64,000 nucleotides of DNA from an uncultured Candidatus Kuenenia sp. (GCA_964654285.1 CAZZJC010000006.1:67288-131287), one strand, 5' to 3'; shown: positions 1,893-46,015, counted from the stretch's first letter. Numbers and translations: made by a program. The notes: a model not told the origin generated them from the sequence alone.

Positions 1893-1904
1893 GCCGCCCA
1901 CGTC

Positions 1905-3585: not shown

Positions 3586-3936
3586 TTACACCGTTGACTC
3601 CCGCACTAATAGAACGACTCCGATGAGCACAAATCCCATACCGATCAGTTTGACCATACCCAGGCTTTCACCGAACCACCACCAACTGGCGACCGCCACG
3701 ATGCCCATGCCCACCCCGGTCATGATCGGATAGCCGACCGTCAAAGGGATCCGGGTCAGGGCGTAACTGTAGGCAACCAGCGCAAGGCCGAAACTCGTCA
3801 TGCCCAGGATATACCAGGGATCGTGCAGAACGCGGTCGAGCAACGGCCGGCTGACATCCCGGACGCCGGCCTTGACCAGCACATTGGCGGCGGCGTTGAG
3901 CACGACCCCGATGGCGAGAGCGATCCAGGTGATCAC
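3586..3936 (-). CDS. Small 4-TM DMT/EamA(ArnE/GtrA)-like membrane protein; candidate lipid-linked sugar flippase subunit
   Basis: VETVITWIALAIGVVLNAAANVLVKAG...GMGFVLIGVVLLV gives about 116 aa with four predicted TM helices. A GTG start overlaps the DprE2-like stop (GTGA), making it the last gene of the DPA-like operon. It is analogous to GtrA-like Rv3789 next to the mycobacterial DPA genes. Confidence 0.6.
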   Translation of the reverse strand: MITWIALAIGVVLNAAANVLVKAGVRDVSRPLLDRVLHDPWYILGMTSFGLALVAYSYALTRIPLTVGYPIMTGVGMGIVAVASWWWFGESLGMVKLIGMGFVLIGVVLLVRESTV

Positions 3937-4700
3937 AGTTTCAACCGCTTGAAGAGGCACTCGGGGATGCGGGTGATGATGGCCATGATCCAACGCCAGA
4001 ACCAGCGCGTGTAGAGCACGTTCCGCTTGCGGTCGATGGCGCGCAGGATGTCCCGCGCCACCTGTTCCGGCGTGGCGACGAGCGGCGAACCTTCTTTCAG
4101 CAGACCCGCCGTCATCGGTGTGGCGACGAATCCTGGCTTGATCGTCAGCACGTGTTTGCGCTCATGGAACAGCCGGTTCCGCAAGCCTTGCAGGTAGGCT
4201 GCCAAACCGGCCTTGGTGCTGCCGTACAGGTAGTTCGATTGGCGGCCGCGATCGCCCGCTACCGAACCGATCACCGCCAGAACGCCACCTTCAACCAGCG
4301 ATGGCACCAACGCCTCGCAGAGGACCACTACTGAACTGAAGTTCACCTGGATCTGGCGCAGCGCCAAGGTGGCATCCTGTTGCGCAGCACGTTGATCGGC
4401 CATGGTGCCGTAGGCGATGAGCACGGCTTGGACCCCATGCGGCGCCAAGGTACGCAACCGCGCTAGCAGATCACCGTGCTGCGCCGGATCGCCAGGATCG
4501 CAGGTGATCGCCACGGCTTCGACCGCTCCCCGCAGCCGAGCATCGGCCGCCACGCGTTCGCCTTCGGCGGCATCGCGCGACGTGAGGATCACGCGGGCGC
4601 CGCGCCCGGCCCAGGCGCGGACACATGCCCGGGCGATGCCGGATGTGGCGCCGATGACCAGGATGGAAGCAGCCTTTGGATTTCCGGTTGCATCAGTCAC
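3933..4700 (-). CDS. dprE2: Short-chain dehydrogenase; DprE2-like decaprenylphospho-2'-keto-ribose reductase homolog
   Basis: VTDATGNPKAASILVIGATSGIARA...NYLYGSTKAGLAAYLQGL...WRWIMAIITRIPECLFKRLKL aligns along its whole length with mycobacterial DprE2 ([22 protein letters not shown]...NFVYGSTKAGLDGFYLGL...[20 protein letters not shown]). A GTG start is proposed at 4698-4700; the listed ORF extends to an upstream ATG at 4775. Confidence 0.8.
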   Translation of the reverse strand: MTDATGNPKAASILVIGATSGIARACVRAWAGRGARVILTSRDAAEGERVAADARLRGAVEAVAITCDPGDPAQHGDLLARLRTLAPHGVQAVLIAYGTMADQRAAQQDATLALRQIQVNFSSVVVLCEALVPSLVEGGVLAVIGSVAGDRGRQSNYLYGSTKAGLAAYLQGLRNRLFHERKHVLTIKPGFVATPMTAGLLKEGSPLVATPEQVARDILRAIDRKRNVLYTRWFWRWIMAIITRIPECLFKRLKL

Positions 4701-4796: not shown

Positions 4797-6140
4797 TCAT
4801 CCCACCAGCCCCAATCGCACCGCCAAGCGCGAGCGGACTCGACCGTGCGGGTCCAACTTTGCCTGGAATTGCCTGAATTCATCCAGGCGCGGATACATCG
4901 CCTGGACGGCGGCGGCACTGCCCAAGGTATCCTTGGCGAAGTAGATCCGGCCCTGATGCGCGAGCAGGATCGCCTGCAGGCGTTCATGCAACGCATGGAT
5001 GCGGTCGGCAGCGAACGGGATGTCGAGCGCCAGGGTGAATCCCGGGGCGAGGTAGGACAGCCAGCCTGGTCCGGCCGCGCCGCTGCGCTTGAGCACGGCC
5101 AGGAAACTCGCCAGGCGCGCATCGCTGATCGCCTCCAGCACCTGGCGCAATCCCGCCGCCGCGGTCGTATCCGGGAACCATGCCTGGAACTGGATGAAAC
5201 CGCGCGTGCCATAGATCCGGTTCCACTGATGGACGGCATCGAGCGGATAGAAGAACGTGTCGTAATCGACAATCTTGGTGCCGTCGCCGTGTTTCCAGTA
5301 AAAAGCTTGGTTGAACGCACTTACCGACCACGACCCCAGGGCCCAGGACGGAAAATCGAAGGGCACCGTCTTGCGCCCCTTGCGAGGGACGCTCATCGGC
5401 CGGTCGCGGTAGGCACGCGGCAGTTCCTCCGGTTCGGCGTCGTTCCCGAGCATCAGCACCGACCGGCCGAGGGCCGCACCGCGGGCCAGGCAGTCGATCC
5501 ACGCCACGCTGTAGCGATGTCCCTGATCTTCCTCAGCCAGACGGGCCAGGGCACGGTCGAGCCCCCCCGCACGTTCATAGCGGACCCGGTACCACGCCGA
5601 GGGCACCCGTCGCAACCGCAGGGTCACCGCCAGGATGAACCCCGTCAGGCCCATGCCGCCGACACTGGCCCAGAACAGGTGCGGATCATTGGCCGGGGTG
5701 ACGGACCGGATCTCGCCGCTCGGCAATGCCAGCACCAGTTCCGTCACATGGGCAGAGAAAGAACCGTCCACATGATGGTTCTTGCCATGCACATCCGCCG
5801 CCACCGCCCCACCCAGGGTGACGAACTTGGTTCCGGGCGTGGTCGGCAGGAAGAATCCCCGGGGTTGGAAATGCTCGATGATCGTCGCCAGACTCACCCC
5901 GGCCTCGGCGGTGAGCAGTCCGCTAGCGGGATCGAAGGCCAGGAAGCGATCGAGACCGGTGTTGCCCAGCACCACGCCACCATCGACGGCGGGCACCGCC
6001 GCATCGCCATACGAACGCCCCAAGCCGCGCGCAATCCAGGGTTGCGCCAGAAGCCTGGGCAGTTCTGCCCAGGTGGTGGGCAGGATGACCTGGCCGGGAA
6101 CTACCGGCACCCGACCCCAACCGGACAGCAACGTGGTCAT
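4797..6140 (-). CDS. dprE1: FAD-linked oxidase; DprE1-like decaprenylphospho-beta-D-ribose 2'-oxidase homolog
   Basis: MTTLLSGWGRVPV...ARGLGRSYGDAAV...PGTKFVTLGGAVAADVHGKNHH...YPRLDEFR matches the DprE1 N-terminal (LTGWGRT...RGLGRSYGD...PGT..VT.GGA.A.D.HGKNHH) and C-terminal regions. The start overlaps the stop of the upstream HAD-UbiA gene (ATGA). The listed 728-aa ORF carries a spurious N-terminal extension. Confidence 0.85.
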   Translation of the reverse strand: MTTLLSGWGRVPVVPGQVILPTTWAELPRLLAQPWIARGLGRSYGDAAVPAVDGGVVLGNTGLDRFLAFDPASGLLTAEAGVSLATIIEHFQPRGFFLPTTPGTKFVTLGGAVAADVHGKNHHVDGSFSAHVTELVLALPSGEIRSVTPANDPHLFWASVGGMGLTGFILAVTLRLRRVPSAWYRVRYERAGGLDRALARLAEEDQGHRYSVAWIDCLARGAALGRSVLMLGNDAEPEELPRAYRDRPMSVPRKGRKTVPFDFPSWALGSWSVSAFNQAFYWKHGDGTKIVDYDTFFYPLDAVHQWNRIYGTRGFIQFQAWFPDTTAAAGLRQVLEAISDARLASFLAVLKRSGAAGPGWLSYLAPGFTLALDIPFAADRIHALHERLQAILLAHQGRIYFAKDTLGSAAAVQAMYPRLDEFRQFQAKLDPHGRVRSRLAVRLGLVG

Positions 6141-7564
6141 GGTGATCCTTTCGGCCCGGCCCCCAGGATGAGTCCGATCGCAAGGATCACCATCACCCAG
6201 GAACCTCGATCCTTGATCGCGAACACGATGGGGTCGTCGTGCAGTTCGCCGCGTCCGGCCTTCAACCAGACCCGGCACGACCACCACAGGATGAGCGGCA
6301 CCAGTCCCCACAGCATCTCGGGTCGCTGATAGAGACCCGGTGCCGCCGGCCCGGCCACATATAGTCCTACCACCAGGGCGGTGGCGAAGGCCGCCGCGAT
6401 GCCGCCCGTGGTCACAAAGGGCAGATCCTCGGCCCGCCAGCCCCGGCCCTTGGCCCCGGCACCACCGGTGGACACCACGCCATGCAATTCCGCCGCCCGC
6501 TTGCCCAGGGCCAGGGACAGGAACAGGAAGACCAGCACCGCCATCAACCAGGGCGACAACGGGATCCCCAACGCGACCGCCCCCGCCACCGACCGCAACA
6601 CATAGAGTCCGGCAAGGATGAACACATCCAGCAGCACCTTGCGTTTGAGGGCGAACGAATATGCGAACGTGACCGTGTAATAGATCCCCAGCATCATCGC
6701 CCCCAGCGGCGAGGCGCACCAGGCCAGGATCCCGGCGGCGATCAGCAACGCTGGGGCCAGGACGAGACCATACAGCACCGGCAAGGTGCCGGCGGCGAAC
6801 GGTCGCCGCCGTTTGCGCGCATGCGCGCGATCGTTTTCCAGATCCAGGAGGTCGTTGAGGAGGTACACCGACGAGGCGCACAGACAGAAGGCGAGGAACA
6901 ACCACCCGGCCGCCAACCAAGTTCCCGTGGCGGTGACATGCGCCGCCAACAGGGGCAGGAAGACCAGCAGGTTCTTCACCCACTGGTGCGGCCGCAGGGC
7001 CTTGATCAGGGCCTTGCCACGTGAGGTCGCGTCGGGATGCCGCCCGAGCACCGGTGCACCGACGCGGGCTTCCGACCAGCCAGCGGCCGGTCCGGCGAGC
7101 ACGGCACCTGCACTCGCGCGCCAGATCGGAAGGTCAGCCGCGCAATCCCCAGCGTAGCAGAACGGACCCTGGGCATCGGCCTGGATCGCCTCCAATTTCG
7201 CGGCACCCTTGCGATTCACCGTGCCGGTGGCGATCACGCCATCGAAGCACCCCAGGTGGTCCGCCACTGCCTGGGCGATGCGTTCGTGCGCGGCGGTGGC
7301 CAATACCACCCGCCGCCCCACTGCCCGCTCGGCGCGAATCCATTCGACCAGTTCGCTTCGGTACGGCAGCAAGGCTGCATCTGGCATCACCCGTTCAGCC
7401 AACCAGGATTTGGCTGACAGCGCTCCCCGCAGAAGCACGAACGGGATCCGCCACGCCATCCAGGGTTGGCGGCGCACCGCCAAAGCGACCGAATCCCATA
7501 GGGAATCGCCGGGGTAGAGGGTGCCGTCGAGGTCGATATAGAGCGGGGGCACGGGCGATTGCAT
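6137..7564 (-). CDS. Fusion protein: N-terminal HAD-family phosphatase domain plus C-terminal UbiA-family prenyltransferase (decaprenyl-phosphate 5-phosphoribosyltransferase-like)
   Basis: MQSPVPPLYIDLDGTLYPGD is a HAD motif I (DxDGT). After about 190 aa come ~9 TM helices with ALRPHQWVKNLLVFLPLL and NDLLDLENDRAHARKRRRPFAAG, the UbiA Asp-rich prenyl-PP binding motifs. It is homologous to Rv3806c-type DPPR synthase. Confidence 0.8.
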   Translation of the reverse strand: MQSPVPPLYIDLDGTLYPGDSLWDSVALAVRRQPWMAWRIPFVLLRGALSAKSWLAERVMPDAALLPYRSELVEWIRAERAVGRRVVLATAAHERIAQAVADHLGCFDGVIATGTVNRKGAAKLEAIQADAQGPFCYAGDCAADLPIWRASAGAVLAGPAAGWSEARVGAPVLGRHPDATSRGKALIKALRPHQWVKNLLVFLPLLAAHVTATGTWLAAGWLFLAFCLCASSVYLLNDLLDLENDRAHARKRRRPFAAGTLPVLYGLVLAPALLIAAGILAWCASPLGAMMLGIYYTVTFAYSFALKRKVLLDVFILAGLYVLRSVAGAVALGIPLSPWLMAVLVFLFLSLALGKRAAELHGVVSTGGAGAKGRGWRAEDLPFVTTGGIAAAFATALVVGLYVAGPAAPGLYQRPEMLWGLVPLILWWSCRVWLKAGRGELHDDPIVFAIKDRGSWVMVILAIGLILGAGPKGSP

Positions 7565-7682
7565 TAGGGTTTGCAGGGAGTGAGTATAATGGCGCTTGCG
7601 ACAAACGGCAACCACCAAGGCAAACGTGGATGTTGGAATCACGTTCAGACTCGGATCAGTTCGATTCATTTTAATTACATGA

Positions 7683-7691
7683 CCCCCCCCC
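7683..7691. repeat. Homopolymeric C9 tract in the divergent promoter region
   Basis: cccccccccc run at 7683-7691 between the HAD-UbiA operon start (7564, minus) and the acyltransferase start (7869, plus). Confidence 0.9.
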
Positions 7692-7868
7692 TCGATTGTC
7701 AAGCATCCCAACCACGTTAGGTTCCTCAACCATGATCCGATCCATTAAAATCACCTGGTCTTGCCCCACCCACAGTTGCCCTGAATACGAACAACCATTT
7801 GGTCATAGCGTCACTTCTTTTAAAGTCGTAGCCCGAAATAATGGGTTCAGACTCGGAACGATTGTCAA

Positions 7869-9059: not shown

Positions 9060-9188
9060 TCCAACAACGCTTTTACCTAGTGCCACCTGCCTAGATGAAC
9101 CTATCCGACCAATTAGATCGCAGTCTAAACGAATGCGAGGGATTTTCAACTCGTGTCTTTCCTCTGGTGACGTTTCGCTTACGCGATT

Positions 9189-13534: not shown

Positions 13535-15345
13535 GACCGTCCCCCCGGCTTGATGCTGATCAGGCCGAGATCCTGAGGACCATGGAGTGCGAGGTTAATC
13601 CTTGCCCGCGCATCCGTATCGCCGATGACAGTAGAGAGCGCCGCGCCGTCTGTATGTAAGTGCAATGGGCCGACCACCGTGAACCCGCCTTCGGCGACCA
13701 GTACTTCAAGAAGGGCGCGCGGCACCGGCCGCAAATGGGTTGGATCGAGCCAAAAAGTGTTGGCCCCCACCTGCAGGTTGGATGAATCTGGCGTCTCGAT
13801 CATCAACAGACCGCCCGGGGCCAGAGCGCGGTAGGAGGCCCGAATGAGACGCCAGATTCGATCAATCGGTAGATGCTCGACGACATGGAAGACAGAAACA
13901 ACGGCTAAGTTATCCTCAGGTTGAGACTCCAGCCAAGCGCAACCTTCATTAAGTTCAGCCCGCTGTCCCTTGATTCGGAGCGCTTCGACGAACTCTTTAT
14001 TAAGATCAATGCCGATAGGATCGCAATCTTCGGCAATCAACTCGAGCCATTCTCCACGACCACAACCGATATCAGCAACGGTGCGCAGTCCTGTGCGCGA
14101 CACAGCAGCCACAAGGTGCGGCCTATAGACTGCAACACGGTTGTGTATATCCACCATGGAACCGCGCAAACGCGCCTCGATTGCTGCGTAGACTCGGTCT
14201 AACTGCGCCTGCGTCGCATCAGAGGAGGAGAGGGGGGCCTGGGCGAGTGCGATCCGGTCGACCACAGAGGTCATTGCTGCAAGACGATGTTCGAGAGTCT
14301 GGCTTTGTAGGAGTAGGCCGGCTTCTGCCTCAACCTGATGCGCAACGCCCGCCTCCAAGTCGCCCAATTTTCCCACCTGGATTTGTAACGAGATTTCGAG
14401 AGCCTCCTGGCGTTCACCCATGGCCCGGATCTTGGCCTCGCATGGGGCGATGCGGTGTTGCGCGTCGACCACTTGCGCAAGCGCATGTGTCGTGCGCCGG
14501 GATTCCTGCTCTTGACGCTCGACGATGGTCTGAATATGCGCCTCAGTAGAACGAACGCGCTTGTCCGTGACGTCTGTCCGGGTCTCAACACCGGTCAACC
14601 TCGCGGATTGCGTGGCAAGGGATTGTTCACAGGCTTTCAGACGGGATCCAAGTTCCATTACCGATTCGGAGCCAACGTGGATGGCGTCCTCAATGGCCCC
14701 GATCTGATCGAGAATCGAGAGGATGGCCAAGTGGCGTTCGTGGTTGAGTTGGAGCACCAGATCGCGCAATGCCGTCGCTTTTGATTCCAGATTGGCGTCT
14801 ATTCGCTGAGTCTCGACAAACCGCTGATGGTTGAAATCAAGCATTTGCGCCGACAGCGCCGCGACCGATTGGTGGCGTTCGTGATTCAGAGTCAGCGCCA
14901 AGGAGCGCGTATGGGATAATTCGATCAACATATTGCGCATCTCGAGAACCTGACTCTCGATTCTTTCGCGGGCCTCAATCTCCATCCGTAATCGGCAACC
15001 GAGGGCATCACGATGGCGGTCCAGGAGTGAGAATGGAAGCAAGAGGCGTGCCAATCCAAGCAGTCGGCCGAGAATCGGGATGCGGGAAATGCGTTGACGC
15101 CAACGAAACCGGCTTAACCCCGGGAATGGTGCTGTAGCTGATCTGGACTTTCCTTCCATTGATTCAGCCAAGGCAAGGACAATTTCTAGCTTTGATAAAC
15201 GCCCGTCAGTCAAGGCGGACAGATGTAAGTTCATACCCGACGAATCGGGCCCTCTACCAAGAATCGAATGATATGCGGCAAGCAGGAACTCAGGTCCATC
15301 CAACGCCAGTAGAGCATCCATATCCACCGGATTCGGATAATTCAT
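13531..15345 (-). CDS. WbdD-like chain terminator/ruler candidate: N-terminal DUF4214, central coiled coil, C-terminal class I SAM methyltransferase
   Basis: N-terminal FLLAAYHSILGRGPDSSGMNLHLSALTDG...LALAES resembles DUF4214. About 250 aa follow with heptad-like repeats (LTLNHERHQSV..., LVLQLNHERHLAIL...). The C-terminus has VADIGCGRGEWLELI...VFHVVEHLP...LAPGGLLMIETPD, the methyltransferase motifs. The gene is ATGA-coupled to both neighbours. Confidence 0.7.
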   Translation of the reverse strand: MNYPNPVDMDALLALDGPEFLLAAYHSILGRGPDSSGMNLHLSALTDGRLSKLEIVLALAESMEGKSRSATAPFPGLSRFRWRQRISRIPILGRLLGLARLLLPFSLLDRHRDALGCRLRMEIEARERIESQVLEMRNMLIELSHTRSLALTLNHERHQSVAALSAQMLDFNHQRFVETQRIDANLESKATALRDLVLQLNHERHLAILSILDQIGAIEDAIHVGSESVMELGSRLKACEQSLATQSARLTGVETRTDVTDKRVRSTEAHIQTIVERQEQESRRTTHALAQVVDAQHRIAPCEAKIRAMGERQEALEISLQIQVGKLGDLEAGVAHQVEAEAGLLLQSQTLEHRLAAMTSVVDRIALAQAPLSSSDATQAQLDRVYAAIEARLRGSMVDIHNRVAVYRPHLVAAVSRTGLRTVADIGCGRGEWLELIAEDCDPIGIDLNKEFVEALRIKGQRAELNEGCAWLESQPEDNLAVVSVFHVVEHLPIDRIWRLIRASYRALAPGGLLMIETPDSSNLQVGANTFWLDPTHLRPVPRALLEVLVAEGGFTVVGPLHLHTDGAALSTVIGDTDARARINLALHGPQDLGLISIKPGGRS

Positions 15346-16583
15346 ACCGGCACCAGCGCCTTTTTATCCGTGGCTTCCGACAAGGTGGCTCGTAATCGGG
15401 TGTGACCTATAAACATTGGCCCAATGATGCCTTTCACTGTGAAGCTCGTAAGGTTGTCATGCCAATGGTAGCAGTCCTTAAGATGATGGTCCTGACTGTG
15501 GATGGCTACAGTGAGCGAATATTTTCCCGGGGCAATATCCATGTCCATGGTGAATCGGAAACAATAACGCTTACCGGGAACAACCTCGGGACGATGACCG
15601 AGATGCCAGGAATTGGTACCGAAGACATCCTGGCCGAAACGGTCGGTGATCTTGATCCCGATGGTCGCCTGGGGAATGGGGTGCTCGCAGTCGATCTCGA
15701 TCTCGATGGTGGTCGACTCTCCACTCTGGACCACATCGCCATGCGAGATCGAACCCAGGATGCGGGCGGCGACGATCCGGGCGGCATAGGTCCCGTAGGA
15801 TTGCTCGGCTTGCCTGGCTAAGGTGGAGATCTTCTGCGCCTGGATCCGATCCTCGCTATCTCCCATCTTGGCGAGAAGGAAATTGTAGGCGTTGGTCACC
15901 GGCTCAGGCAGTCCATCTTCGATCACCCGACCGCGATGGAGGAGGATCGCCCGATCGGTCAGGAGTTTGATCGAGTTCATGTCGTGGGAGACGAGGATCA
16001 GACTGCCGCCCTTGGCCTTGAAGGCGCGGATCCGTTCCAGGCATTTGGCGCCGAAGTGGGCGTCGCCCACCGACAGGGCCTCGTCGACGATGAAGCAGAC
16101 CGGTTCACTGTGGATGGCTATGGAGAATCCCAACCGCATCAACATGCCGCTGGAATAGGTCTTGACTGGTTCGTGGATGAAATCGCCGAGTTCGGTGAAG
16201 TCGATGATGGCCTGACGTTTGCTGGCGATTTCTGGTGGCGTCATGCCAAGAATGAGACCGCTGAGATGGATGTTTTCGATCCCGGAGAGTTGATTATTGA
16301 AACCGGCGCCGATCGCGAGCAGTCCGATCCGGCCGGCGCCATCGACGGAGATCCGGCCCTGGTCCGGGAGAAGCATGCCGGCCAGAATCCTGAGCAGGGT
16401 GCTCTTGCCGGCACCATTAGGGCCGATCACGCCGAGAGATTCACCCGGTTGCAAGGTGAAGGAGATGTCGTCCAGTGCCTGGAAATCCTTGTGATAGGGC
16501 CGCCGAAAGAGGATCTCCTTGAGCCGGTCCGCAGGATTGCGATACAGGCGAAACCGCTTGCTGATGTGGTCGACCGAAATCAT
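15342..16583 (-). CDS. wzt: O-antigen/teichoic-acid export ABC transporter ATP-binding protein (Wzt/TagH family) with a C-terminal glycan-binding domain
   Basis: [20 protein letters not shown] is the Walker A; [14 protein letters not shown] is the ABC signature; [11 protein letters not shown] is the Walker B. An extra C-terminal domain of about 160 aa is typical of Wzt. Confidence 0.9.
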
Positions 16584-17347
16584 AGGAAATCCCGGACATC
16601 ACGTTCAAGACGGCGGAAGAGCAGCACTGCCACCAGACTCAGGAGGCATCCGACGAGGAGCATCCCCATCAGGACATGCCAATCAGGGAATTGGTGCAGG
16701 ATGAAGATCCGGTGGTAGCAGTCGATGCCGATCGCGGTCGGGTTGGCCTCGACCACTGGTCGTACCGCCGCCGGCACGATGTCCTTGAGGTAGACGATCG
16801 GAGTGAGCCAGAACCAGAGCTGGAAGACGATGTTGGCAACTTCCTTGAGGTCGGGCAGGAAGACCGTGAAGGTGGCAAGGAGCAGGCCGATGCCGTAGGC
16901 GATGAGTTGCTGCGCGATGAACACCGGGATCAGGGCCACCAGCGGCCAACCAGGAAATTCCCCGTTGGCGAAAGTCAACACCAGGAGGATGCCGGTAGTC
17001 ACCAGGTAGGTGAAGGTCTCGGCCAGGATGATGTAAATTGGCAACAGAGGCAGACTGGTCTGCATCTGCTGGATCATCGGCTTTTTGTCGCTGAAGACGG
17101 TGGCGCATCGCAAGCACGTCATGCTGAAGGCGGTCCAGGGCAGCAGTCCGCTCATCAGGTAGATGCCATAACCCCAGGCGGAACCGTTGCCCGGCAGGCG
17201 GGCGGACATGATCTGGGAAAAGATCACCGTGAAGATGAAGACCATCACCAACGGCTGGATCAGGGCCCAGGTGCCGCCCAGGGCGGAGCCGCTGAACCGG
17301 TCGGTGAGGTCCCGTCGGGCGAGATGGAGGAGCAGGGCCGGCGACAT
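16580..17347 (-). CDS. wzm: ABC-2 type polysaccharide export permease (Wzm)
   Basis: MSPALLLHLARRDLTDRFSGSALGGTWALIQPL... has six TM helices in an ABC-2 permease architecture. Its stop overlaps the wzt start (ATGA). The listed 302-aa ORF has an N-terminal extension, so the start is placed at M48. Confidence 0.85.
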   Translation of the reverse strand: MSPALLLHLARRDLTDRFSGSALGGTWALIQPLVMVFIFTVIFSQIMSARLPGNGSAWGYGIYLMSGLLPWTAFSMTCLRCATVFSDKKPMIQQMQTSLPLLPIYIILAETFTYLVTTGILLVLTFANGEFPGWPLVALIPVFIAQQLIAYGIGLLLATFTVFLPDLKEVANIVFQLWFWLTPIVYLKDIVPAAVRPVVEANPTAIGIDCYHRIFILHQFPDWHVLMGMLLVGCLLSLVAVLLFRRLERDVRDFL

Positions 17348-22777: not shown

Positions 22778-23819
22778 TCACGGGGTCGCGGCCGCAGTAC
22801 CATCAGCCCAGACCCGCAGGCCCTGTCGAGCCAGATACAATGGGATGACCGTGAATCCGGCCTGGGTAAGGTCGCGCTGGAGGATCCGCTTGGCCTCGGA
22901 TCGATGCCTGCAGAGCAGGGTCACGGAACCGCCGTCACCACCAGCACCATTGACCTTGCATCCAAGCACGCCATGCGCCTGGGCGATGGTGATCACACGT
23001 TCGAAATCGGTGCCAACCAAGGCAGGATGCAAGGCGCGTTGGGCCTCGGTGTTCTCGTTCCACACTGTACCCAGGCCTGACCAATCTCCACGCATCAGTG
23101 CGTCTTTAGCCCGCAGGGCCAGACTGCGGAAACGTTCGAGGCGGACATCGGCATGAGCTTCAGGTCCGAGGTGCCGGATGACGTCCTGATGCACGGCAGA
23201 CGATTGGTGCGGTTTTCCTATGTAGACCAGCACCATGCGCCGTTCGAGTTCCCACCAGAGAGGGTTGGAAAGTTGGATCGGAGACACCGACGCATCGGGG
23301 AAACGGCTCATCTCGATCAGGTTGACTCCACCGTAGGCGGCACAGAGTTGATCCTGGATGCCGCTTTGAAGGGACAGGTCTTCCGTTTCGATGCGATGCG
23401 CCAACCGCGCGATCTCGTAGGGAGTGAGCGTTCCGGCAGAAAGCCGGTCGAGAGCGGCGATGATCGCCACCGAGACCGAGGCCGAGGTGCCGGTCGAGGC
23501 CCCTGGCGGGACCTCGCAAAAGATGCTGACATCGATGGAGGTGCGTTCCGGGATCTGCAGCCGGCGCAGGGCGCATTCCAGGAGCGGCAGCTTGTCGTAG
23601 GCCCGGTCGAGCTCTTCCATGGTGAAGTGCAGGCCGAAGTTCTCGGCATGGACGGCAACCCGGGGCTGGTCAGGACGTCGTTCCCGGGTGGTAATCTGCA
23701 CCTCGACGTAGGGATAGACCGCAATGTTGCACACCCGGCCGTGACCGGCGAACCAGGTATCGGTCCAGCCTCCTACATCGGCGACGCGGATCGGGGCGAC
23801 AGCGGTGATGGTGGTCATG
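22778..23819 (-). CDS. GHMP-family sugar kinase (HddA-like), copy 1
   Basis: MTTITAVAPIRVADVGGWTDTWF...CEVPPGASTGTSASVSVAIIAAL (GHMP motif II)...KVNGAGGDGGSVTLL (motif III). The second half of the gene has lower GC3. Confidence 0.8.
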
Positions 23820-23963: not shown

Positions 23964-25361
23964 ATGAACCGTGCGCAGCAATCGGGGATTCTCTGGTGCG
24001 ATATCGGGGATCTCCTCGACTATTTCGCTCTTTATTCTCGTCCATCTGGAATTCAACGGGTAGTGGTAGAGGTTCTGCGGATGGCGCGACTGCGGTGCCT
24101 GCCCGAAGTGCGTTTGTGCCGGATCACCCCGGGTGGACGGCTGCTGCACCTGGACTGGAGTTGGCTTGATCAGGTGTCCAAACCCCCGACACCGCCGGTA
24201 GTAGCCGCCCCAGGCAAACCTCATCTCATTTCGGTGAAATTGGCCACCCACCTGCGCCAATGTGCGAAAAACGCTGTGCATTTGACATTCGCGTGTTTCC
24301 CGGGCGACAGCGGTGATCGATTCCGTCGATGGATCCGCCCCTTGCGCATTCCGCCAGCCCGACGGAAATGGCATGCGTCACTGGCGGCCGCAGGTGTTCC
24401 CTCGCTGCCGTCCGCTAGCGATCTGGTGGTGACCCTTGGTGCCCCCTGGATCCGACCTGGCTGCGAAAAGGATATGGAGCAGGTCCTGGCGCAAAGTGGG
24501 GCACGTTACGCGGTGCTCGTCTACGACTTGATTCCGCTCACCCATCCGCATCTGTTTCCGGATGAGCCGAACCCGTTCATGCCCTGGTTGGATTGGGCCC
24601 TCAAGCGGGCCTGTCTGGTGCAGACGATATCCCATTATTCTGCCCGGACGATTGCAGCCTACCGGGAAAATCGTGGCTTTCCCCTGGTCCCTACCGAGGT
24701 CATCCGCCTCGGCGATCCCCTGCAGGCATCGACGCGTGCCCCCAATCCGCTGCCCCCTCATATCAGGTTCATCCTCTGCGTTGGCACCATCGAAGCCCGC
24801 AAGAACCATCGCTTGCTGCTGGATACCTGGTTGATCCTGCGGGAGCGATTGGGGGAAAGATGCCCGCATCTGGTCTGGGCCGGACGCAAGGGCTGGTTGG
24901 TGGACGACCTGTTCACCCAACTCCGCGCCGCCCGCTGGCTCGAGGGACGCATCATCCATCTTCCCCAGGCCAGTGACGCCGAGTTGGAAACCCTGTACCG
25001 GGATTCGCTGTTCACTGTCTATCCCAGCCTGGCGGAAGGATGGGGCTTGCCGGTCGCTGAAAGTTTGTCCCGGGGCAAGGTGTGTATTGCCTCCAATAGC
25101 ACGTCGATCCCGGAAATCGCAGGCGACTTGCCTTACTTCATTGATCCCTTCGATCCACGTTCTTTGGCCGAACTAATCTGTCGTCTCCTCGACCAACCAG
25201 CCGAACTTGCTGCCCGGGAAGTCCGTATCCGGGAAACGTGGCGGGCACAACCCTGGTCGGTCTGTGCGGATCAGGTGTTGCGAGGTCTGGAAGAAACATT
25301 GGTCCTGAACGAATCCTGCCGATCACAAAGCACTGGTCCGAGCTGGTTGGGTCAGTCTTGA
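23964..25361 (+). CDS. GT4 family glycosyltransferase
   Basis: ...ILCVGTIEARKNHRLLLDTW...YPSLAEGWGLPVAESLSRGKVCIASNSTSIPEIAGD carries the GT4 EX7E motif region. Confidence 0.8.
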   Translation: MNRAQQSGILWCDIGDLLDYFALYSRPSGIQRVVVEVLRMARLRCLPEVRLCRITPGGRLLHLDWSWLDQVSKPPTPPVVAAPGKPHLISVKLATHLRQCAKNAVHLTFACFPGDSGDRFRRWIRPLRIPPARRKWHASLAAAGVPSLPSASDLVVTLGAPWIRPGCEKDMEQVLAQSGARYAVLVYDLIPLTHPHLFPDEPNPFMPWLDWALKRACLVQTISHYSARTIAAYRENRGFPLVPTEVIRLGDPLQASTRAPNPLPPHIRFILCVGTIEARKNHRLLLDTWLILRERLGERCPHLVWAGRKGWLVDDLFTQLRAARWLEGRIIHLPQASDAELETLYRDSLFTVYPSLAEGWGLPVAESLSRGKVCIASNSTSIPEIAGDLPYFIDPFDPRSLAELICRLLDQPAELAAREVRIRETWRAQPWSVCADQVLRGLEETLVLNESCRSQSTGPSWLGQS

Positions 25362-27127
25362 CCGTAAACGCGACGTATCGGTTGCCAATCCGACCAGTCC
25401 CAGATCCGATCCGGACGGGAATCAACCGAGACTGGGGTGCTATTCCATTCGTGCGGACCAAAGGACCTGACTGCCCGCCAATGCACCACCGCCCCAGCGG
25501 CCACTAACAAGCCGATGAACAGGAGAACGGGTTTTTGCCAGGCTGAATGGCATTTGAGGATCTTGATGATGAAAGGCACGCATAGCAAGGCGATGCTGAC
25601 GTATAGAGGTGCTTGTAAGCGGGGTCCGAAACTCCACCCACCCCACCAGTGTGGAAAGCAGGCAATGAGTATGGTTCCGACCACGACGTGCGCCGTAACT
25701 CCAATCCACAACCAGCGTCGATCCCGGTCGTAGACGATTCCTACTACCGCCCCCGGGATCGCGGCCAACATGACCGGATTGAAAATGAAAAAGCCGCGGT
25801 TGGGACTGAACCACTGGCCGAGGATGGCCTGCGGGAATACGGACGGATCAATGCGATTCCCACCATAATAGGGTGGGAATATCGTGCCGAATGCCGTCCA
25901 GGACCATGTGATAAAAAAAACGAGGACTAGCCCACATCCAAGCGCGAACCCAACCAACGGTGCGATGCGCCAACGATTGCCCAGAATCAGAAAGAGCAGC
26001 GCCACGGGTCCAATTAGCGCACCGTCTGGTCGGCACACGAAGGCAAATCCGACCAGCAGACCGGCCGCCAACGCGAGCAGCGGACCTCTGGCAGCGAGGG
26101 CCGCCCACCACGCAGCGGTCAGGCACGCTAGCATGGTGGAACTCGACCAGATAGAAAGCCCGTGTATACTGAGATGGGACGTAGCGAGTGTGAATACGGA
26201 TGCGCATATCGTTGCCGTCATCAAACCAGTTCCGACCTCCAATAGAAGGCCAAGGAATAGGGTTGCGGTCAAGGCGGTCATCACTCGGGAGGCCCATACG
26301 GCCACCGTTTGATCATCGAACCCCAAGATGTTCTGCACTGCCACGAAAGGGAGCAGCAGGCAGGAAGTTCCTGGTGGGAAGTAGTTGTATGGATTCCCGG
26401 TCGCGCCTAGGCGTATCCCGTAACTTTGCACAGTTACGATCTGCTCCTGCCACGCTGATAGGTCCAACGTCCTCTGGTAGAGGATTGCCTGAGCACCAGG
26501 AACATTCCACATATTATCACCAGTTCCAGCCAAGTTTTGGTGCCCGGTACCCAACCCAACCAGTACCAGGATGACAAGGAAGAAACCTGCCAACATGCGA
26601 AATCGCCCCGACGGGGTCAAAGCCACCAAGGCGATGGAAAGCACCCCCAAGCCGGCCAGCAGCCAACTAACTCCGTTAGCGGTCCCTGATCGGACCGCGA
26701 TGCGAAGTTGGTCAATGACTAACTCGGGTGTAGAAAGCTGGGAAAAAACACGCAATTCTACTTGCGCTGGAACCTTGGGGCCGGTCTGAAATGCGCGTAT
26801 TGCGTGCTTAGCCGATGGTGGGAATACCACCTCCTGAGCACCATCATCGTATCCCGGGGCCATGAGATCTATATGGATTTGTACAGGGGTGCGAGTTGAA
26901 AGCCACACGGTATAGGTAGACGAAGGTAGGGGCTTAATCACCCGCCACGTGAGCGACGGCAACCGGACTGTTCCATTGGCATCGACGGGAATCGACGACT
27001 GCCAAGCAGCTGGACTTTCCACCAACACGGTGTCGCCAATGCCCAGTCGGATGGAAATTCCCCAGGCGAGCAACAATATTCCTATGGCAACACCAAGCAA
27101 CCGGAAGAGAAACCAGCGGTTGATCAT
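25352..27127 (-). CDS. Large polytopic membrane protein (one N-terminal TM helix, ~170-aa periplasmic domain, then ≥10 TM helices); candidate GT-C-type lipid-linked-sugar glycosyltransferase
   Basis: MINRWFLFRLLGVAIGILLLAWG is a signal-anchor. A soluble β-rich segment follows, then a long hydrophobic region. The start overlaps the cysC stop (ATGA). GC is lower than in flanking DNA. No family was recognised from sequence alone. Confidence 0.55.
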   Translation of the reverse strand: MINRWFLFRLLGVAIGILLLAWGISIRLGIGDTVLVESPAAWQSSIPVDANGTVRLPSLTWRVIKPLPSSTYTVWLSTRTPVQIHIDLMAPGYDDGAQEVVFPPSAKHAIRAFQTGPKVPAQVELRVFSQLSTPELVIDQLRIAVRSGTANGVSWLLAGLGVLSIALVALTPSGRFRMLAGFFLVILVLVGLGTGHQNLAGTGDNMWNVPGAQAILYQRTLDLSAWQEQIVTVQSYGIRLGATGNPYNYFPPGTSCLLLPFVAVQNILGFDDQTVAVWASRVMTALTATLFLGLLLEVGTGLMTATICASVFTLATSHLSIHGLSIWSSSTMLACLTAAWWAALAARGPLLALAAGLLVGFAFVCRPDGALIGPVALLFLILGNRWRIAPLVGFALGCGLVLVFFITWSWTAFGTIFPPYYGGNRIDPSVFPQAILGQWFSPNRGFFIFNPVMLAAIPGAVVGIVYDRDRRWLWIGVTAHVVVGTILIACFPHWWGGWSFGPRLQAPLYVSIALLCVPFIIKILKCHSAWQKPVLLFIGLLVAAGAVVHWRAVRSFGPHEWNSTPVSVDSRPDRIWDWSDWQPIRRVYGQD

Positions 27128-27843
27128 TTAATGTTCCCGGGATAATCCATGAATCGGCCAGTGGACAGCGTTCGTGGCATGATATTAGACCTCTCCCTTG
27201 AAGGCCGGTTTGACAAAGTGATCAACTCAAGGTTGATTGATTGCACCAAGTGTTGAACTCTGCTTTCCGAAGTAGTGTCAATGATGGAAAGGTTCCGAGC
27301 CTTACATTCGGTTAATGTCTGGCACATCGTATCCAAACGCAATTCCGGCCGTTCCGGCTCTTCATACGGCGCATCGCAGCCGGTCAGGCCGGTCATCTGG
27401 CCGGCGCGGAAGCGGCGGTAGAGGCCCTTGGGATCGCGTTGTTCGCAGACGGCGAGGGGGGTGGCGACGTGGACTTCGATGAAGCGGCCAGCGGGGGCGG
27501 CAGCGCGGGCTTGGGCACGGCTGGCGGCGTAGGGGCTGATCAGGGCGACGAGGGCGATCAGGCCGGCGTCCGCGAACAGCGCGGCGACCTCGCCGGCGCG
27601 ACGGATGTTCTCCTGCCGATCGAAGGCGGACAGGCCGAGATCGCGGCAGAGGCCCTGGCGCAGCAGGTCGCCGTCGAGGACGTAGCAGGGCCGGCCCTGC
27701 GCCAGCAGGTCCGCCTCGACGGCGCGTGCGAGGGTGGTCTTGCCGCTGCCGCTCAGGCCGGTGAACCAGACGACCAGACCGGGTTGGCGTGGTGACGCGC
27801 GATCAGCGGATCCGCTGAGTGGCGGTTGGGGGAAATCAGGCAT
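27124..27843 (-). CDS. cysC: Adenylyl-sulfate (APS) kinase CysC with an atypical ~45-aa AT-rich C-terminal extension
   Basis: VVWFTGLSGSGKTTLA is the P-loop; YVLDGDLLRQGL and ...APYEEPERPELRLDT are canonical CysC blocks. The ORF continues about 45 codons beyond the usual C-terminus into low-GC DNA. Confidence 0.8.
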   Translation of the reverse strand: MPDFPQPPLSGSADRASPRQPGLVVWFTGLSGSGKTTLARAVEADLLAQGRPCYVLDGDLLRQGLCRDLGLSAFDRQENIRRAGEVAALFADAGLIALVALISPYAASRAQARAAAPAGRFIEVHVATPLAVCEQRDPKGLYRRFRAGQMTGLTGCDAPYEEPERPELRLDTMCQTLTECKARNLSIIDTTSESRVQHLVQSINLELITLSNRPSRERSNIMPRTLSTGRFMDYPGNIK

Positions 27844-27961: not shown

Positions 27962-28525
27962 ATGGCGACGCCCACGGTGACGACTTCCGGTGTGATGCTG
28001 GCTTGGCCCGACGGGTTTGCGGCGGCGTTGCCGCGCAGCGGGTGGGTGGTGGCGCATGCCAAGCCGCGCACCGAGAAGAAACTCGCCGAGGATCTGCTGC
28101 GCCTGGGGATCGCCGGGTGCCTGTTCCTGGAACGCCGCATCAAGCGTTATCCCGGCAAAGGGGTGCAGGAGAGCCAGGTGCCGCTGCTGGGCGGGTACCT
28201 GTTCGTGCACCTGGGCGAGGGCCGGGATCCCGAGCCGGTCTACCGCACCGAACGCGTGGTGCGGCTGATCCGGGTGCCGGATCCGGGCCGGCTGGCGGAT
28301 GATCTGGCGGCCCTGCAGCGGCTGATCGAGGGCGCGCAACGGCCGCTGGTGGTGCGGCCGGAACTGATGCCTGGCCAGGTCGTGACGATCGCCAGCGGCG
28401 TCTTTTCCGGCTGCCGGGGCGTGATCGTGCGGCGCGAAGGGGCGGCCGAGCTGGTGGTGAACATCGAGGCGCTCGGGCATTCGGTGGCGGTGCGGATGGG
28501 GGCCGACCTGGTCGGCACGGAATAG
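27962..28525 (+). CDS. NusG-family paralog (RfaH/UpxY/TaA-like transcription antiterminator)
   Basis: WVVAHAKPRTEKKLAEDLLRLGIAGCLFLERRIKRYPGKG...LLGGYLFVHL is an NGN domain. The C-terminal KOW domain is GQVVTIASGVFSGCRGVIVRREGAAELVVNIEALGHSVAVRM. An alternative start is at 27995. Confidence 0.75.
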   Translation: MATPTVTTSGVMLAWPDGFAAALPRSGWVVAHAKPRTEKKLAEDLLRLGIAGCLFLERRIKRYPGKGVQESQVPLLGGYLFVHLGEGRDPEPVYRTERVVRLIRVPDPGRLADDLAALQRLIEGAQRPLVVRPELMPGQVVTIASGVFSGCRGVIVRREGAAELVVNIEALGHSVAVRMGADLVGTE

Positions 28526-28579: not shown

Positions 28580-29614
28580 TCAGCCCGCGGCGTTGCCGTC
28601 AGTCCAGACGCGCAGGCCCTGGCGGGCAAGGTAGAGCGGGATGACGGTGAAGCCGGCCTGGACGAGGTCGCGCAGCAGGGCGCGCTTGGCGTCGGAACGC
28701 GGGCCGCACAGCAGGGTGACGGAACCGCCGTCGCCGCCGGCGCCGTTGACCTTGCAGCCCAGGATGCTGTGGGCGGTGGCGATCGCGATGACCTTCTCGA
28801 AATCGGGGCCGACCAGGGCGGGATGCAGGGCGCGCTGGGCCTCGGTGTTCTCGTTCCAGACCCGGCCCAGTCCGGCCCAGTCGCCGCGCAGCAGGGTGTC
28901 CTTGGCGCGCAGGGCGAGGCTGCGGATACGTTCCAGGCGCGGATCCGCGTGCGCATCGGGGCCGAGGTGGCGGATGACCTCCTGGTGCACGGCCGATGAC
29001 TGGTGCGGCCGGCCGATATAGACCAGCGCCATGCGCCGTTCGAGTTCCCACCACAGGGCATTGGGCAGGTGGAGCGGCGACACCGACGCGTCCGGGAAGC
29101 GGGTCATCTCGATCAGGTTGACGCCGCCGTACGCGGCGCAGAGCTGGTCCTGGATGCCGCTCTGCAGGGAAAGATCCTCGGCCTCGATGCGGTGCGCCAG
29201 GCGGGCGATCTCGTAGGCGGTGAGGGTGCCCCCGGACAGGCGGTCGAGCGCGGCGATGATCGCGACCGATACCGAGGCCGAGGTGCCGGTGGACGCGCCC
29301 GGCGGCACCTCGCAGAAGAGGCTGACATCGATCGAGATGCGCTCCGGGACCTGGAGCCGGCGCAGGGCGCATTCCAGCAGCGGCAGCTTGTCGTAGGCGC
29401 GGTCGAGCTCCTCCATCGAGAAGCGCAGGCCGAAGTTCTCGGCGTGCACCGCGACCCGGGGCTGGTCGGGGCGGCGTTCGCGCGTGGTGATCTGGACTTC
29501 GACGTAGGGATAGACCGCGATGTTGCAGACCCGGCCATGACCGGCGAACCAGGTGTCGGTCCAGCCGCCGACGTCGGCGACGCGGATCGGGGCGACGGCG
29601 GTGATGGTGGTCAT
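28580..29614 (-). CDS. GHMP-family sugar kinase (HddA-like), copy 2 (about 89% aa identity to copy 1)
   Basis: MTTITAVAPIRVADVGGWTDTWF...CEVPPGASTGTSASVSVAIIAAL...KVNGAGGDGGSVTLL. GC is high throughout. It is embedded in the listed 487-aa ORF 28580..30043, whose N-terminal extension is spurious. Confidence 0.8.
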   Translation of the reverse strand: MTTITAVAPIRVADVGGWTDTWFAGHGRVCNIAVYPYVEVQITTRERRPDQPRVAVHAENFGLRFSMEELDRAYDKLPLLECALRRLQVPERISIDVSLFCEVPPGASTGTSASVSVAIIAALDRLSGGTLTAYEIARLAHRIEAEDLSLQSGIQDQLCAAYGGVNLIEMTRFPDASVSPLHLPNALWWELERRMALVYIGRPHQSSAVHQEVIRHLGPDAHADPRLERIRSLALRAKDTLLRGDWAGLGRVWNENTEAQRALHPALVGPDFEKVIAIATAHSILGCKVNGAGGDGGSVTLLCGPRSDAKRALLRDLVQAGFTVIPLYLARQGLRVWTDGNAAG

Positions 29615-29808
29615 GGGCGGTTTTCCTGGGGAAGGATCGAGCCTGCCGCCCGGCGGCGGTGAGGGAAGATGGCGTGCCAGGTCGCAGGCGCCGGGTACGC
29701 GCGATGGCGGCGATGCCGGAAACGCATCCGCCCCGGCCGCAACCGCGCCGGATCGCCCACCCGCTGCGTCGGGCGGTTGAGTCCCCCGGCGGGGGGCGAC
29801 ACTCGCCG

Positions 29809-30924
29809 ATGTCCATGTCCACGACCGCTGTCTCTCCATCGGCCGGATTGGCCACCGATCGCGCCACGCTCGCCGCCTGGCTGGCGTGCGAGGACGACGT
29901 CCGGCTGGAGGACCTCTGGGCGGCGGCCGATGCGGTGCGGCGCGAGCATGTCGGCGATGACGTCCACCTGCGCGGGCTGATCGAGATCTCGAACCACTGC
30001 GTGCGGCAGTGCGCGTACTGCGGCCTGGCGGGCAGTCGCGCACCGGAACCGGCCGGACCGCTGCCGCGTTATCGCATGACGCACGACGAGATCCTCGCCT
30101 GCGCGCACCAGGCGCGCGGGTACGGCTACGGCACGGTGGTGCTGCAAGGCGGCGAGGACTACGGCCTTACCGCCGACTGGGTCGCGGCGGTGGTGCGGGC
30201 GATCAAGGCCGAGACCGGGTTGTCGGTGACGCTCAGCCTGGGCGAGCGGCGCGAGGACGAATTGCAGGCCTGGCGCGCGGCCGGGGCGGATCGCTACCTG
30301 CTGCGCTTCGAGACCGCGAACCGGGACCTCTACCGCCGCATCCATCCGGATCTCGGCCGCGAGGTGTCCGACCGGCTGGCGCTGCTGCAGCGGTTGCGCG
30401 CGATCGGCTACGAGATCGGCACCGGCATCATGGCCGGCATCCCGGGGCAGACGTTCGCGGATCTGCTCGACGACCTGGAGACCTTCCGCCGGTTGGATCC
30501 CGACATGATCGGCATCGGGCCGTACCTGCCGCATCCGCAGACCCCGCTCGGCCGCGAGGCGATCGGCATCTTCGCCGACACGCCGGGGCAGGTGCCCTCC
30601 AGCGAACGGATGACCTGCATCCTGGTGGCGCTGACGCGGCTGGTCTGCCCCGAGGCGAACCTGCCCGCGACGACCGCGCTGGCGACGATCAACAAGCGCG
30701 ATGGGCGCGAGAACGGCCTGCGCCGGGGGGCGAACATCCTGATGCCGAACCTGACCCCGGTGCGCTATCGCGCCCTCTACGAGATCTATCCCGCCAAGGC
30801 CTGCGTCGACGAGACCGCGGAGCAGTGCCACGGCTGCCTGGACGGCCGCATCCGCGCGCTCGGCCGGGTGCCGGGGCGCGGGCCGGGCAGCCGGCGGCGG
30901 TCGCTGGCCGGGGGAGGCGCATGA
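29809..30924 (+). CDS. hydE: [FeFe]-hydrogenase maturase HydE (radical SAM, BioB-like)
   Basis: LRGLIEISNHCVRQCAYCGL is the CX3CX2C radical-SAM motif in a HydE-type context. VLQGGEDYGL and GANILMPNLTPVRYRALYEIYP are HydE-like C-terminal blocks. The start is placed at M51 of the listed ORF. The stop overlaps the hydG start (ATGA). Confidence 0.75.
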   Translation: MSMSTTAVSPSAGLATDRATLAAWLACEDDVRLEDLWAAADAVRREHVGDDVHLRGLIEISNHCVRQCAYCGLAGSRAPEPAGPLPRYRMTHDEILACAHQARGYGYGTVVLQGGEDYGLTADWVAAVVRAIKAETGLSVTLSLGERREDELQAWRAAGADRYLLRFETANRDLYRRIHPDLGREVSDRLALLQRLRAIGYEIGTGIMAGIPGQTFADLLDDLETFRRLDPDMIGIGPYLPHPQTPLGREAIGIFADTPGQVPSSERMTCILVALTRLVCPEANLPATTALATINKRDGRENGLRRGANILMPNLTPVRYRALYEIYPAKACVDETAEQCHGCLDGRIRALGRVPGRGPGSRRRSLAGGGA

Positions 30925-35884: not shown

Positions 35885-35998
35885 ACCCTCAGGTGGACGT
35901 GGGAAGGCACCAGGAAGCCGCATACGGCAGCCGGCGGCGCGTGCTTGCGCGCTGACGCCGGGTCCGCAAGCATCCCGGCCCGCCCCAGGAGCTTCCCC

Positions 35999-45759: not shown

Positions 45760-46015
45760 GGCGGGTTCGTACCAGCGGGCCACTGCTGCGCCAGTTGGAT
45801 GAGCGCGACGCCGTCTTCGCCCGAGCACAGCCCTTTGCCAGTACGTGGCCCGCACGCACCTCGTCAAGGCTCGCGACCAGCCGCGGGCCCTGGCGCACGC
45901 CCCAACCTTCCACAGGGAAATTAGTTCCGCATCGAAACATATTGCACCACGGGCCGCGTCGCTATTGTTTCGACACGACACCAATAAAGGTGATCCCAGC
46001 CCAACGAGGTCTCCC

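Follow-up and report, generated by a model that had tools for sequence, protein, structure and literature searches.

We analyzed a 64,000-nucleotide stretch of DNA from an uncultured Candidatus Kuenenia sp. (GCA_964654285.1, CAZZJC010000006.1:67288-131287), here called the window, in which cysC, the gene for adenosine 5'-phosphosulfate (APS) kinase, overlaps the gene for a 591-amino-acid (aa) polytopic membrane protein at one end of a polysaccharide locus. We conclude that cysC marks, on the right, the conserved boundary of a variable polysaccharide locus of the ABC-transporter-dependent type (approximately 3.6 to 27.3 kb) and that the host is a high-GC bacterium, probably of the Planctomycetota. 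The explanation that we favor, with moderate confidence, has two parts: the unusual 3' end of cysC would be the scar of a cassette exchange, and the membrane protein would be a glycosyltransferase of the GT-C fold that completes a three-component pathway for adding pentofuranose to a polysaccharide. The features at the junction are listed below, with positions counted from the first letter of the window.

27124..27843, minus strand: cysC, 239 aa
27328..27843, minus strand: cysC head, codons 1 to 172, with the complete APS kinase domain (Pfam APS_kinase, residues 22 to 171) and part of the conserved flank
27127..27327, minus strand: cysC tail, codons 173 to 239, apparently foreign AT-rich DNA read through in frame (identity drop, GC 0.46)
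27124..27127, minus strand: ATGA, overlap of the cysC stop codon and the GT-C start codon, read from the sequence
25352..27127, minus strand: 591-aa open reading frame (ORF), GT-C-fold glycosyltransferase, proposed periplasmic arabinofuranosyltransferase
27962..28525, plus strand: NusG/UpxY-like antiterminator gene of the conserved flank, divergent from cysC (Pfam NusG; NF033644 UpxY, 1.8e-15; same gene in the sister contig L001)

The 3' end of cysC

Both ORFs lie where the original prediction had placed them, and their overlap is a 4-nt ATGA in which the cysC frame reads AAC ATT AAA TGA and the next frame reads ATG ATC AAC. A TAA stop codon directly precedes the ATG in the GT-C frame; therefore, a longer N terminus for the 591-aa protein is impossible. 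The identity of cysC is secure, as the product matches the whole Pfam APS_kinase profile (PF01583; 8e-61, 205 bits, profile positions 2 to 152 of 152) and scores above the cutoffs of two NCBIfam models (TIGR00455, 215 bits against 138.7; NF003013, 224.6 bits against 163). The invariant P-loop GLSGSGKTT and the LDGD, ENIRR, ISP, and KGLY motifs are present. Alignment A2 has 50 invariant columns, which by construction are all represented in the window CysC, and every one of them falls before residue 173.

The C terminus of CysC departs from that of its homologues. The window protein has 72 residues after the YE.P...E motif, compared with at most 48 (median, 31) among 116 homologues, and query coverage was at most 82% in every one of the best 120 CysC homologues. 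CysC had been predicted to continue past its canonical C terminus into AT-rich DNA. The extension is real and is not shared by orthologous CysC proteins, but the AT-rich DNA begins inside cysC, at codon 173 (27329-27330), rather than after the canonical end. Therefore, the native last ~27 residues have been replaced as well, and ~41 more have been added. The predicted GC discontinuity between the two genes is a sharp step: GC and GC at third codon positions (GC3) are 0.71 and 0.83 in the cysC head (27328-27843), 0.46 and 0.55 in the tail (27127-27327), and 0.56 and 0.62 in the 591-aa gene. No tRNA, Rfam family, or promoter- or terminator-like site was found at the junction.

Comparison with a sister genome locates the break. 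The closest relative of the window CysC (P0030; 199 aa, 81% identical) is encoded on L001, a 147-kb metagenome contig that shares with the window the neighborhood to the right of cysC, namely, hydG, hydE, a GHMP kinase gene, and the NusG/UpxY-like gene. L001 represents a sister genome, because its GHMP kinase gene is 92.8% identical in DNA to that of the window flank and its xylulokinase is 95% identical in aa sequence. Window and L001 are 85.2% identical in DNA over cysC codons 1 to 172 and 38% identical, the chance level, afterward. The drop occurs inside one 30-nt bin, with the break at 27329/27330, and coincides with the collapse in GC. At the other end of the gene, ~45 bases upstream of the cysC ATG are conserved. 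In L001, cysC ends normally, and its stop codon overlaps a gene for a 991-aa fucokinase/GDP-fucose pyrophosphorylase (Fkp), which is followed by a GT2 gene and then by a different Wzm/Wzt pair (28% and 38% identical to that of the window). Thus, the conserved flank includes cysC, and all that lies to the left of this gene is an exchangeable polysaccharide cassette. GC3 is 0.83 to 0.92 in the flank genes and 0.54 to 0.84 in the locus at 3.6 to 27.3 kb.

We propose that the cassette to the left of cysC was exchanged by recombination, with a breakpoint inside cysC at codon 172/173. The cysC frame would then run through 67 codons of imported AT-rich DNA up to the ATGA of the first cassette gene. 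If so, the tail, the GC step, and the stop/start overlap would be a junction scar and not the sign of a functional partnership. Because the complete Pfam domain and all invariant residues precede the break, the tailed kinase is probably active, as judged from its sequence.

The tail itself has a weak coding signature. Its origin was sought by tblastn and blastn in all fetched loci and in the window, with nothing above noise, and a 20-mer from it had no match in metagenome_contigs. The AlphaFold2 (AF2) model of CysC has a confident helix at residues 177 to 211, in place of the native C-terminal helix, and a low-confidence coil at residues 212 to 239. An open frame of 67 codons was found in 2.4% of shuffles of that DNA, which is unusual but not overwhelming. 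We also considered residues 173 to 196 as a divergent cysC 3' end brought in by the donor cassette and dropped the idea as unsupported, although the AF2 helix leaves some room for it. A profile of the C-terminal segments of homologous CysC proteins, built without P0030, scored the postjunction segment at -0.1 bits, a score matched by 1492 of 5000 shuffles (30%); poor conservation of this region across the family leaves the test with little power.

The 591-aa membrane protein

The 591-aa protein had been guessed to be a GT-C-type enzyme and, more specifically, an arabinofuranosyltransferase, and both guesses are supported by its fold and its context. Two of its parts are needed below.

26687..27031, minus strand: N-terminal periplasmic beta-sandwich domain, resembling a carbohydrate-binding module (CBM), residues 33 to 147, between helices 4-27 and 148-170
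26516..26518, minus strand: codon of Asp204, candidate catalytic base, invariant in alignments A1 (19 sequences) and A5

Sequence searches gave few names. The protein had no match in Pfam, and the best NCBIfam model, NF047440 (LA_3751/LA_3752, a putative Leptospira glycosyltransferase family), scored 32 bits against a cutoff of 200. A word-indexed search returned 28 relatives, the best at 31% identity, and a profile of 19 relatives matched 25,743 representative clusters at E<=1e-3 and 4,427 at E<=1e-30. By these matches, the core of the protein belongs to a very large unnamed family found across many phyla. The family profile had no match among PDB sequences, and neither solved GT-C enzymes nor annotated genes on plasmids showed a sequence link to the 591-aa protein. 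PMT_2 (PF13231) was matched by only one of the 19 relatives (2e-05) and not by the window protein.

The structural model was more informative. In agreement with the topology first read from the sequence, it has an N-terminal helix (4-27) and a beta-rich domain (33-147) followed by ~12 membrane helices, and it shows the GT-C polytopic membrane fold of ArnT, PglB/STT3, PMT, ALG, and the Aft/Emb enzymes. The best structural matches were mannosyl and 4-amino-4-deoxy-arabinose (Ara4N) transferases, and Foldseek agreed with weaker scores. In the model, the first core helix (174-193) is followed by the first periplasmic loop, which holds Asp204; this residue is invariant in 19/19 sequences and, by GT-C precedent (PMC11127046), is a candidate for the catalytic base. 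The 591-aa protein was the only GT-C candidate found in the window.

Donor genes and the rest of the locus

The other end of the locus encodes enzymes expected to make a lipid-linked pentofuranose, and an exporter lies between.

6137..7669, minus strand: HAD(PRP)-UbiA fusion, polyprenyl-phosphate phosphoribosyltransferase with its own phosphatase domain (Pfam HAD, residues 66 to 202; UbiA, residues 256 to 491)
4797..6140, minus strand: DprE1-like FAD oxidase (Pfam FAD_binding_4; NF053785)
3933..4700, minus strand: DprE2-like short-chain dehydrogenase/reductase (SDR) family reductase (NF053786, DprE2; NF005489)
3586..3936, minus strand: SMR/EamA-like membrane protein, 116 aa, candidate flippase for the lipid-linked pentose (Pfam Multi_Drug_Res, 2e-08)
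15342..17347, minus strand: Wzt (with the Wzt_C carbohydrate-binding domain) and Wzm, ABC exporter of the backbone (Pfam ABC_tran; Wzt_C, 2e-31; ABC2_membrane)

The HAD-UbiA fusion scored 544 bits with NF006088 (cutoff, 351) and had partial matches, at 170 bits, to models of DPPR synthase (decaprenyl-phosphate phosphoribosyltransferase). The DprE1 homologue matched NF053785 (decaprenylphosphoryl-beta-D-ribose oxidase) over its full length at 412 bits, below the cutoff of 500. The DprE2 homologue matched NF053786 over its full length at 161 bits, below the cutoff of 250, and NF005489 at 285 bits, above the cutoff of 267. The SMR-like protein has weak matches (ArnE, 26.9 bits against a cutoff of 92), and it is a candidate flippase by its position only, as its gene adjoins that of DprE2. 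The rest of the locus encodes several single- and multimodule GT4 enzymes, a protein with DUF4214, coiled-coil, and methyltransferase parts, Wzm, Wzt, an Acyl_transf_3 protein, and two GHMP kinases, and as a whole it resembles an ABC-transporter-dependent O-polysaccharide system.

Donor genes of this kind also occur beside the closest relatives of the GT-C gene. Homologues of UbiA, DprE1, or DprE2 lie within 10 kb in three of the six best-matching GT-C loci, compared with 1 of 75 more distant loci (Fisher p ~9e-4). In a Desulfobacteraceae metagenome-assembled genome (MAG) (L010), the GT-C homologue is contiguous with UbiA, DprE1, and DprE2; in the locus of the closest relative (P0002, on L004), it stands beside UbiA, DUF212, GtrA, DprE1, and DprE2; and in L006, a partial DprE2 gene lies near the GT-C homologue at the contig end. 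Among the more distant loci, L028 has UbiA, DprE1, and DprE2 homologues 8 kb from the GT-C homologue. The contigs of two other relatives, P0003 and P0005, are short and gave no usable gene context. We infer the use of a polyprenyl-phosphate-linked donor by the 591-aa protein from the donor genes in its locus and from those next to its homologues.

One more gene accompanies the GT-C homologues. A Methyltransf_23 gene of the window (9189-10055, minus strand) is 45 to 48% identical to methyltransferases in L004 (9099-10004) and L016 (5951-6805), both of which carry a GT-C homologue, and the L004 methyltransferase directly overlaps the start of that homologue. For this branch of GT-C proteins, Methyltransf_23 may constitute a second conserved partner.

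Genes for sulfation

The stand-alone position of cysC had been taken to imply a dedicated supply of 3'-phosphoadenosine 5'-phosphosulfate (PAPS) for sulfation of the glycan, an idea to which nothing in the window lends support. As predicted, cysD, cysN, and cysH are absent by Pfam from every plausible ORF of the 64-kb window and of 1.6 kb further left, and no match to Sulfotransfer_1/_2/_3 or Stf0 was found in those same ORFs. No ATP sulfurylase (cysD/cysN or sat) was found in the window, and the unassigned ORFs of L001 had no sulfotransferase family match. We considered a 213-aa ORF (18655-19296) as a hidden sulfotransferase and rejected it, as it is DUF4214-like with a hydrophobic segment and a coiled coil. 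The unassigned parts of the 604-aa, 1160-aa, and 771-aa proteins proved to be only coiled coil or further GT4 modules.

Nothing supports a specific partnership between cysC and the GT-C gene. The same cysC overlaps the unrelated Fkp gene in L001, and no cysC was found within 10 kb of a GT-C homologue in the other loci (L004, L006-L085). Moreover, the predicted GT-C active site faces the periplasm, and PAPS is cytoplasmic.

A likely sulfated-polysaccharide locus was seen elsewhere. L089, a 3.3-Mb metagenome contig, carries at 8001-16078 a complete cluster of cysC, cysD, cysN(C), two Sulfotransfer_3 genes, Wzx, and GT2.

Other features of the locus and its flanks

Two sugar kinase genes of the GHMP family lie in direct orientation, one in the locus (22778-23818, minus strand; GC3 0.72) and one in the flank (28580-29614, minus strand; GC3 0.92). 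They are 82% identical in DNA and 89% identical in aa sequence, with homology limited to the coding sequence, and the locus copy is about as distant from the L001 ortholog as from the flank copy. By sequence, this pattern suggests that the cassette derived from a more distant, lower-GC relative carrying the same GHMP kinase. In L001, the NusG-like gene and cysC are separated by a 4.6-kb insert (5641-9640) that the window lacks and that carries HTH, AAA plus PD-(D/E)XK, and DUF2283 genes; two more DUF2283 genes are scattered in the L001 cassette.

Within the locus, a 604-aa protein (13531-15345, minus strand) combines DUF4214, a coiled coil of ~250 residues, and a C-terminal methyltransferase, and it resembles the WbdD-type chain terminators and molecular rulers. 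Both it and the 213-aa DUF4214-like protein with a hydrophobic segment and coiled coil (18655-19296, plus strand) are encoded next to Wzt with Wzt_C. The Acyl_transf_3 (OafA-like) gene at 7869-9059 (plus strand) has the lowest GC in the locus (GC 0.48, GC3 0.54) and the strand opposite to its neighbors, and it has the appearance of an O-acetylation module that was acquired separately. Where the locus ends on the left, rmlC is split into ORFs of 130 aa and 62 aa, and a DUF4143/AAA_14 ATPase gene lies between rmlD and rmlC (window 717-2486; L090 2324-4093); the rhamnose operon may be disrupted there.

To the right of cysC, hydE (29704-30924, plus strand) and hydG (30921-32366, plus strand) encode radical-SAM maturases of [FeFe]-hydrogenase and score above their NCBIfam equivalog cutoffs. 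The pair adjoins the glycan locus and is also present in L001, and no hydF or hydA was found in the window. The best named homologues of the xylulokinase at 35945-37465 (plus strand) are from Planctomycetota MAGs, at 74 to 76% identity, which is the sole clue to the host lineage and a weak one. Finally, a TauE/SafE-family anion exporter gene (50644-51420, plus strand) and a GDP-mannose-4,6-dehydratase-like gene (44791-46035, minus strand) lie 17 to 23 kb to the right of the locus.

Discussion

How the GT-C protein might act is suggested by a system already described. O-antigens exported by ABC transporters receive periplasmic pentofuranose side chains from three components, a PRP-PPPRS fusion (HAD then UbiA), a flippase, and a GT-C enzyme with a CBM, with DprE1/E2 homologues where the sugar is arabinofuranose (Araf) (Kelly et al., PNAS 2024; PMC11127046). 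In Citrobacter youngae O1/O2, the components are ORF15 (PRP-PPPRS), ORF14 (flippase), and ORF12 (GT-C/GT136) (PMC11127046). The window resembles the C. youngae system in its Wzm/Wzt-dependent backbone, its HAD-UbiA synthase in a single protein, its GT-C protein with a CBM-like periplasmic domain, and its DprE1/E2 homologues. By analogy, the HAD-UbiA protein would make undecaprenyl-phosphate-ribofuranose (Und-P-Ribf) from phosphoribosyl pyrophosphate (PRPP), the DprE1/DprE2 homologues would epimerize it to Und-P-Araf, and the SMR-like protein would flip the product across the membrane. The 591-aa enzyme would then move Araf onto the polysaccharide as side chains after Wzm/Wzt export, perhaps with the CBM-like domain holding the exported polymer. 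We regard this route, from Und-P-Ribf through Und-P-Araf and flipping to decoration of the backbone, as fairly probable.

The window differs from the C. youngae system in several respects. The CBM-like domain is N-terminal between two extra helices in the window protein but C-terminal in ORF12, the candidate flippase is SMR-like rather than MATE, and the transferase gene lies 18 kb from the donor genes. The host is probably a planctomycete rather than an enterobacterium. Moreover, the comparison of the 591-aa protein with ORF12 (CAZy family GT136) is by description and domain order, not by sequence. The mycobacterial decaprenyl-phosphate-arabinose (DPA) pathway (AftA, AftB, AftD, and EmbA-C) is more distant: none of the Aft or Emb proteins is matched by the window protein at the sequence level, the window synthase has a phosphatase fused to it, and the role predicted here is side-chain decoration of an exported O-polysaccharide-like glycan instead of polymerization of cell wall arabinan. 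ArnT, the GT83 transferase of undecaprenyl-P-Ara4N to lipid A, is 10% identical to the 591-aa protein; the PMT_2 model fails to match the window protein, no arn genes were found in the window, and the window protein has the extra CBM-like domain.

Several observations weigh against the explanation that we favor. The GT-C family has no Pfam model and no PDB sequence match, and the proposed function draws on modeled fold and gene context. The GT-C gene, with a GC3 of 0.62 compared with 0.76 to 0.79 for the donor genes, lies 18 kb away from them, and because of this distance and difference, transferase and donor genes may have separate histories. Only some members of the GT-C family, and three of the six with the N-terminal domain, lie near such donor genes. 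Because the DprE1 and DprE2 homologues score below equivalog cutoffs, the pentose could be other than Araf. Finally, because so long an open frame is infrequent among shuffles and the AF2 helix is confident, the CysC tail may be under some selection or may include a divergent donor cysC 3' end.

How cysC came to carry a tail has a parallel in O-antigen loci. The genes gnd and galF flank the O-antigen locus of E. coli, and recombination breakpoints occur in such flanking genes of Enterobacteriaceae. As in breakpoints of the gnd/galF type, homology in the window stops abruptly where a lower-GC cassette begins, with the crossover inside a flanking gene. Unlike the mosaic alleles of gnd and galF, however, the crossover proposed for the window replaced the 3' end of its flanking gene and gave an extended, chimeric ORF.

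What cysC does at its present position can be read in more than one way. One serious possibility, although short of probable, is that cysC is a housekeeping bystander, an assimilatory APS kinase that borders the locus and has no part in it other than as a homology arm when cassettes are exchanged. The flank indeed holds unrelated genes such as hydE and hydG, the breakpoint is inside cysC as expected of a flanking homology arm, and no sulfation enzyme is encoded nearby. On the other hand, cysC is co-oriented with and overlaps the first cassette gene in two genomes, and cysD, cysN, and cysH are not linked to it.

A dedicated PAPS supply seems rather unlikely by comparison with even chances but deserves to be weighed. 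Here, cysC would function in the glycan operon and feed a sulfotransferase encoded elsewhere or too divergent to recognize, and the glycan would be sulfated in the cytoplasm before Wzm/Wzt export. Consistent with such a role, cysC comes first in a leftward glycan operon in both the window and L001, with its stop codon overlapping the first cassette gene in each, and the bases 5' of its ATG are conserved. Moreover, PAPS genes and sulfotransferases in a capsular polysaccharide (CPS) locus have been described as the hallmark of sulfated polysaccharides (PMC11641403), and in L089 a stand-alone CysC (P0050; 64% identical) heads the sulfation cluster. The window is like the sulfated-polysaccharide clusters of Vibrio sp. 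KMM 8419 (PMC11641403) and L089 in having a stand-alone cysC in a polysaccharide locus, but both of those carry cysD/cysN and at least one sulfotransferase, and the window carries neither. The searches of the window, of the DNA to its left, and of L001 likewise speak against sulfation. Because different cassettes follow the same cysC, the sulfotransferase would also need to be conserved elsewhere. That the new tail has crippled the kinase is part of the likelihood that is left beside bystander and dedicated supply.

The GT-C protein might instead use another lipid-linked donor, such as an Und-P-hexose or Und-P-Ara4N, or another acceptor, such as lipid A, a protein, or a pilin, with the DPA-like genes serving a transferase outside the window. 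DPA-like genes are absent from the vicinity of most members of the large family, mannosyl and Ara4N transferases head the structural matches, and the GC3 of the GT-C gene is unlike that of the donor genes. We nonetheless consider this alternative unlikely. The locus would make a polyprenyl-phosphate-pentose and has no GT-C candidate other than the 591-aa protein, the closest homologues of this protein are contiguous with UbiA, DprE1, and DprE2, and the CBM-like domain fits a polysaccharide acceptor.

Still more doubtful, in our view, is a double modification, in which cysC is a true operon member, the glycan receives Araf in the periplasm as well as sulfate in the cytoplasm, the latter from an unrecognized sulfotransferase family, and the CysC tail is selected, e.g., for translational coupling. 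The sulfotransferase would be hidden in a multidomain GT4, methyltransferase, or coiled-coil protein or would lie outside the locus, and the tail, as modeled, would be a helix and a flexible linker ending at the GT-C start. Lastly, a misjoin of two organisms' contigs as the source of the GC step and fused tail is very improbable: the window derives from metagenome-type assemblies, and the locus has the second, lower-GC GHMP kinase copy at 82% identity, but identical 239-aa and 591-aa proteins are recorded in both the NCBI record and a Logan assembly, whose contig, when read, carries the junction; the postjunction sequence does not resemble cysC, which leaves no shared repeat at which a misjoin could arise; GC climbs again at the far end of the locus (rml genes); and low GC is usual in polysaccharide cassettes.

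Cassette exchange beside a pentofuranose pathway thus remains the reading that we prefer. The finding does not establish sulfation of the glycan. It does provide a clean example of a cassette-exchange breakpoint that rewrites the 3' end of a flanking gene, and annotators may misread such tails and stop/start overlaps as functional fusions. The system is of a known kind, three-component pentofuranose glycosylation, with a transferase from an uncharacterized sequence family and an unusual N-terminal placement of the CBM-like domain, set beside an ordinary cassette-exchange breakpoint. If our interpretation is correct, the pathway would extend to a distant, uncultured, high-GC lineage, probably Planctomycetota, and a testable function, Araf side-chain transfer, can be proposed for one branch of a huge uncharacterized GT-C family of ~25,700 representative clusters.

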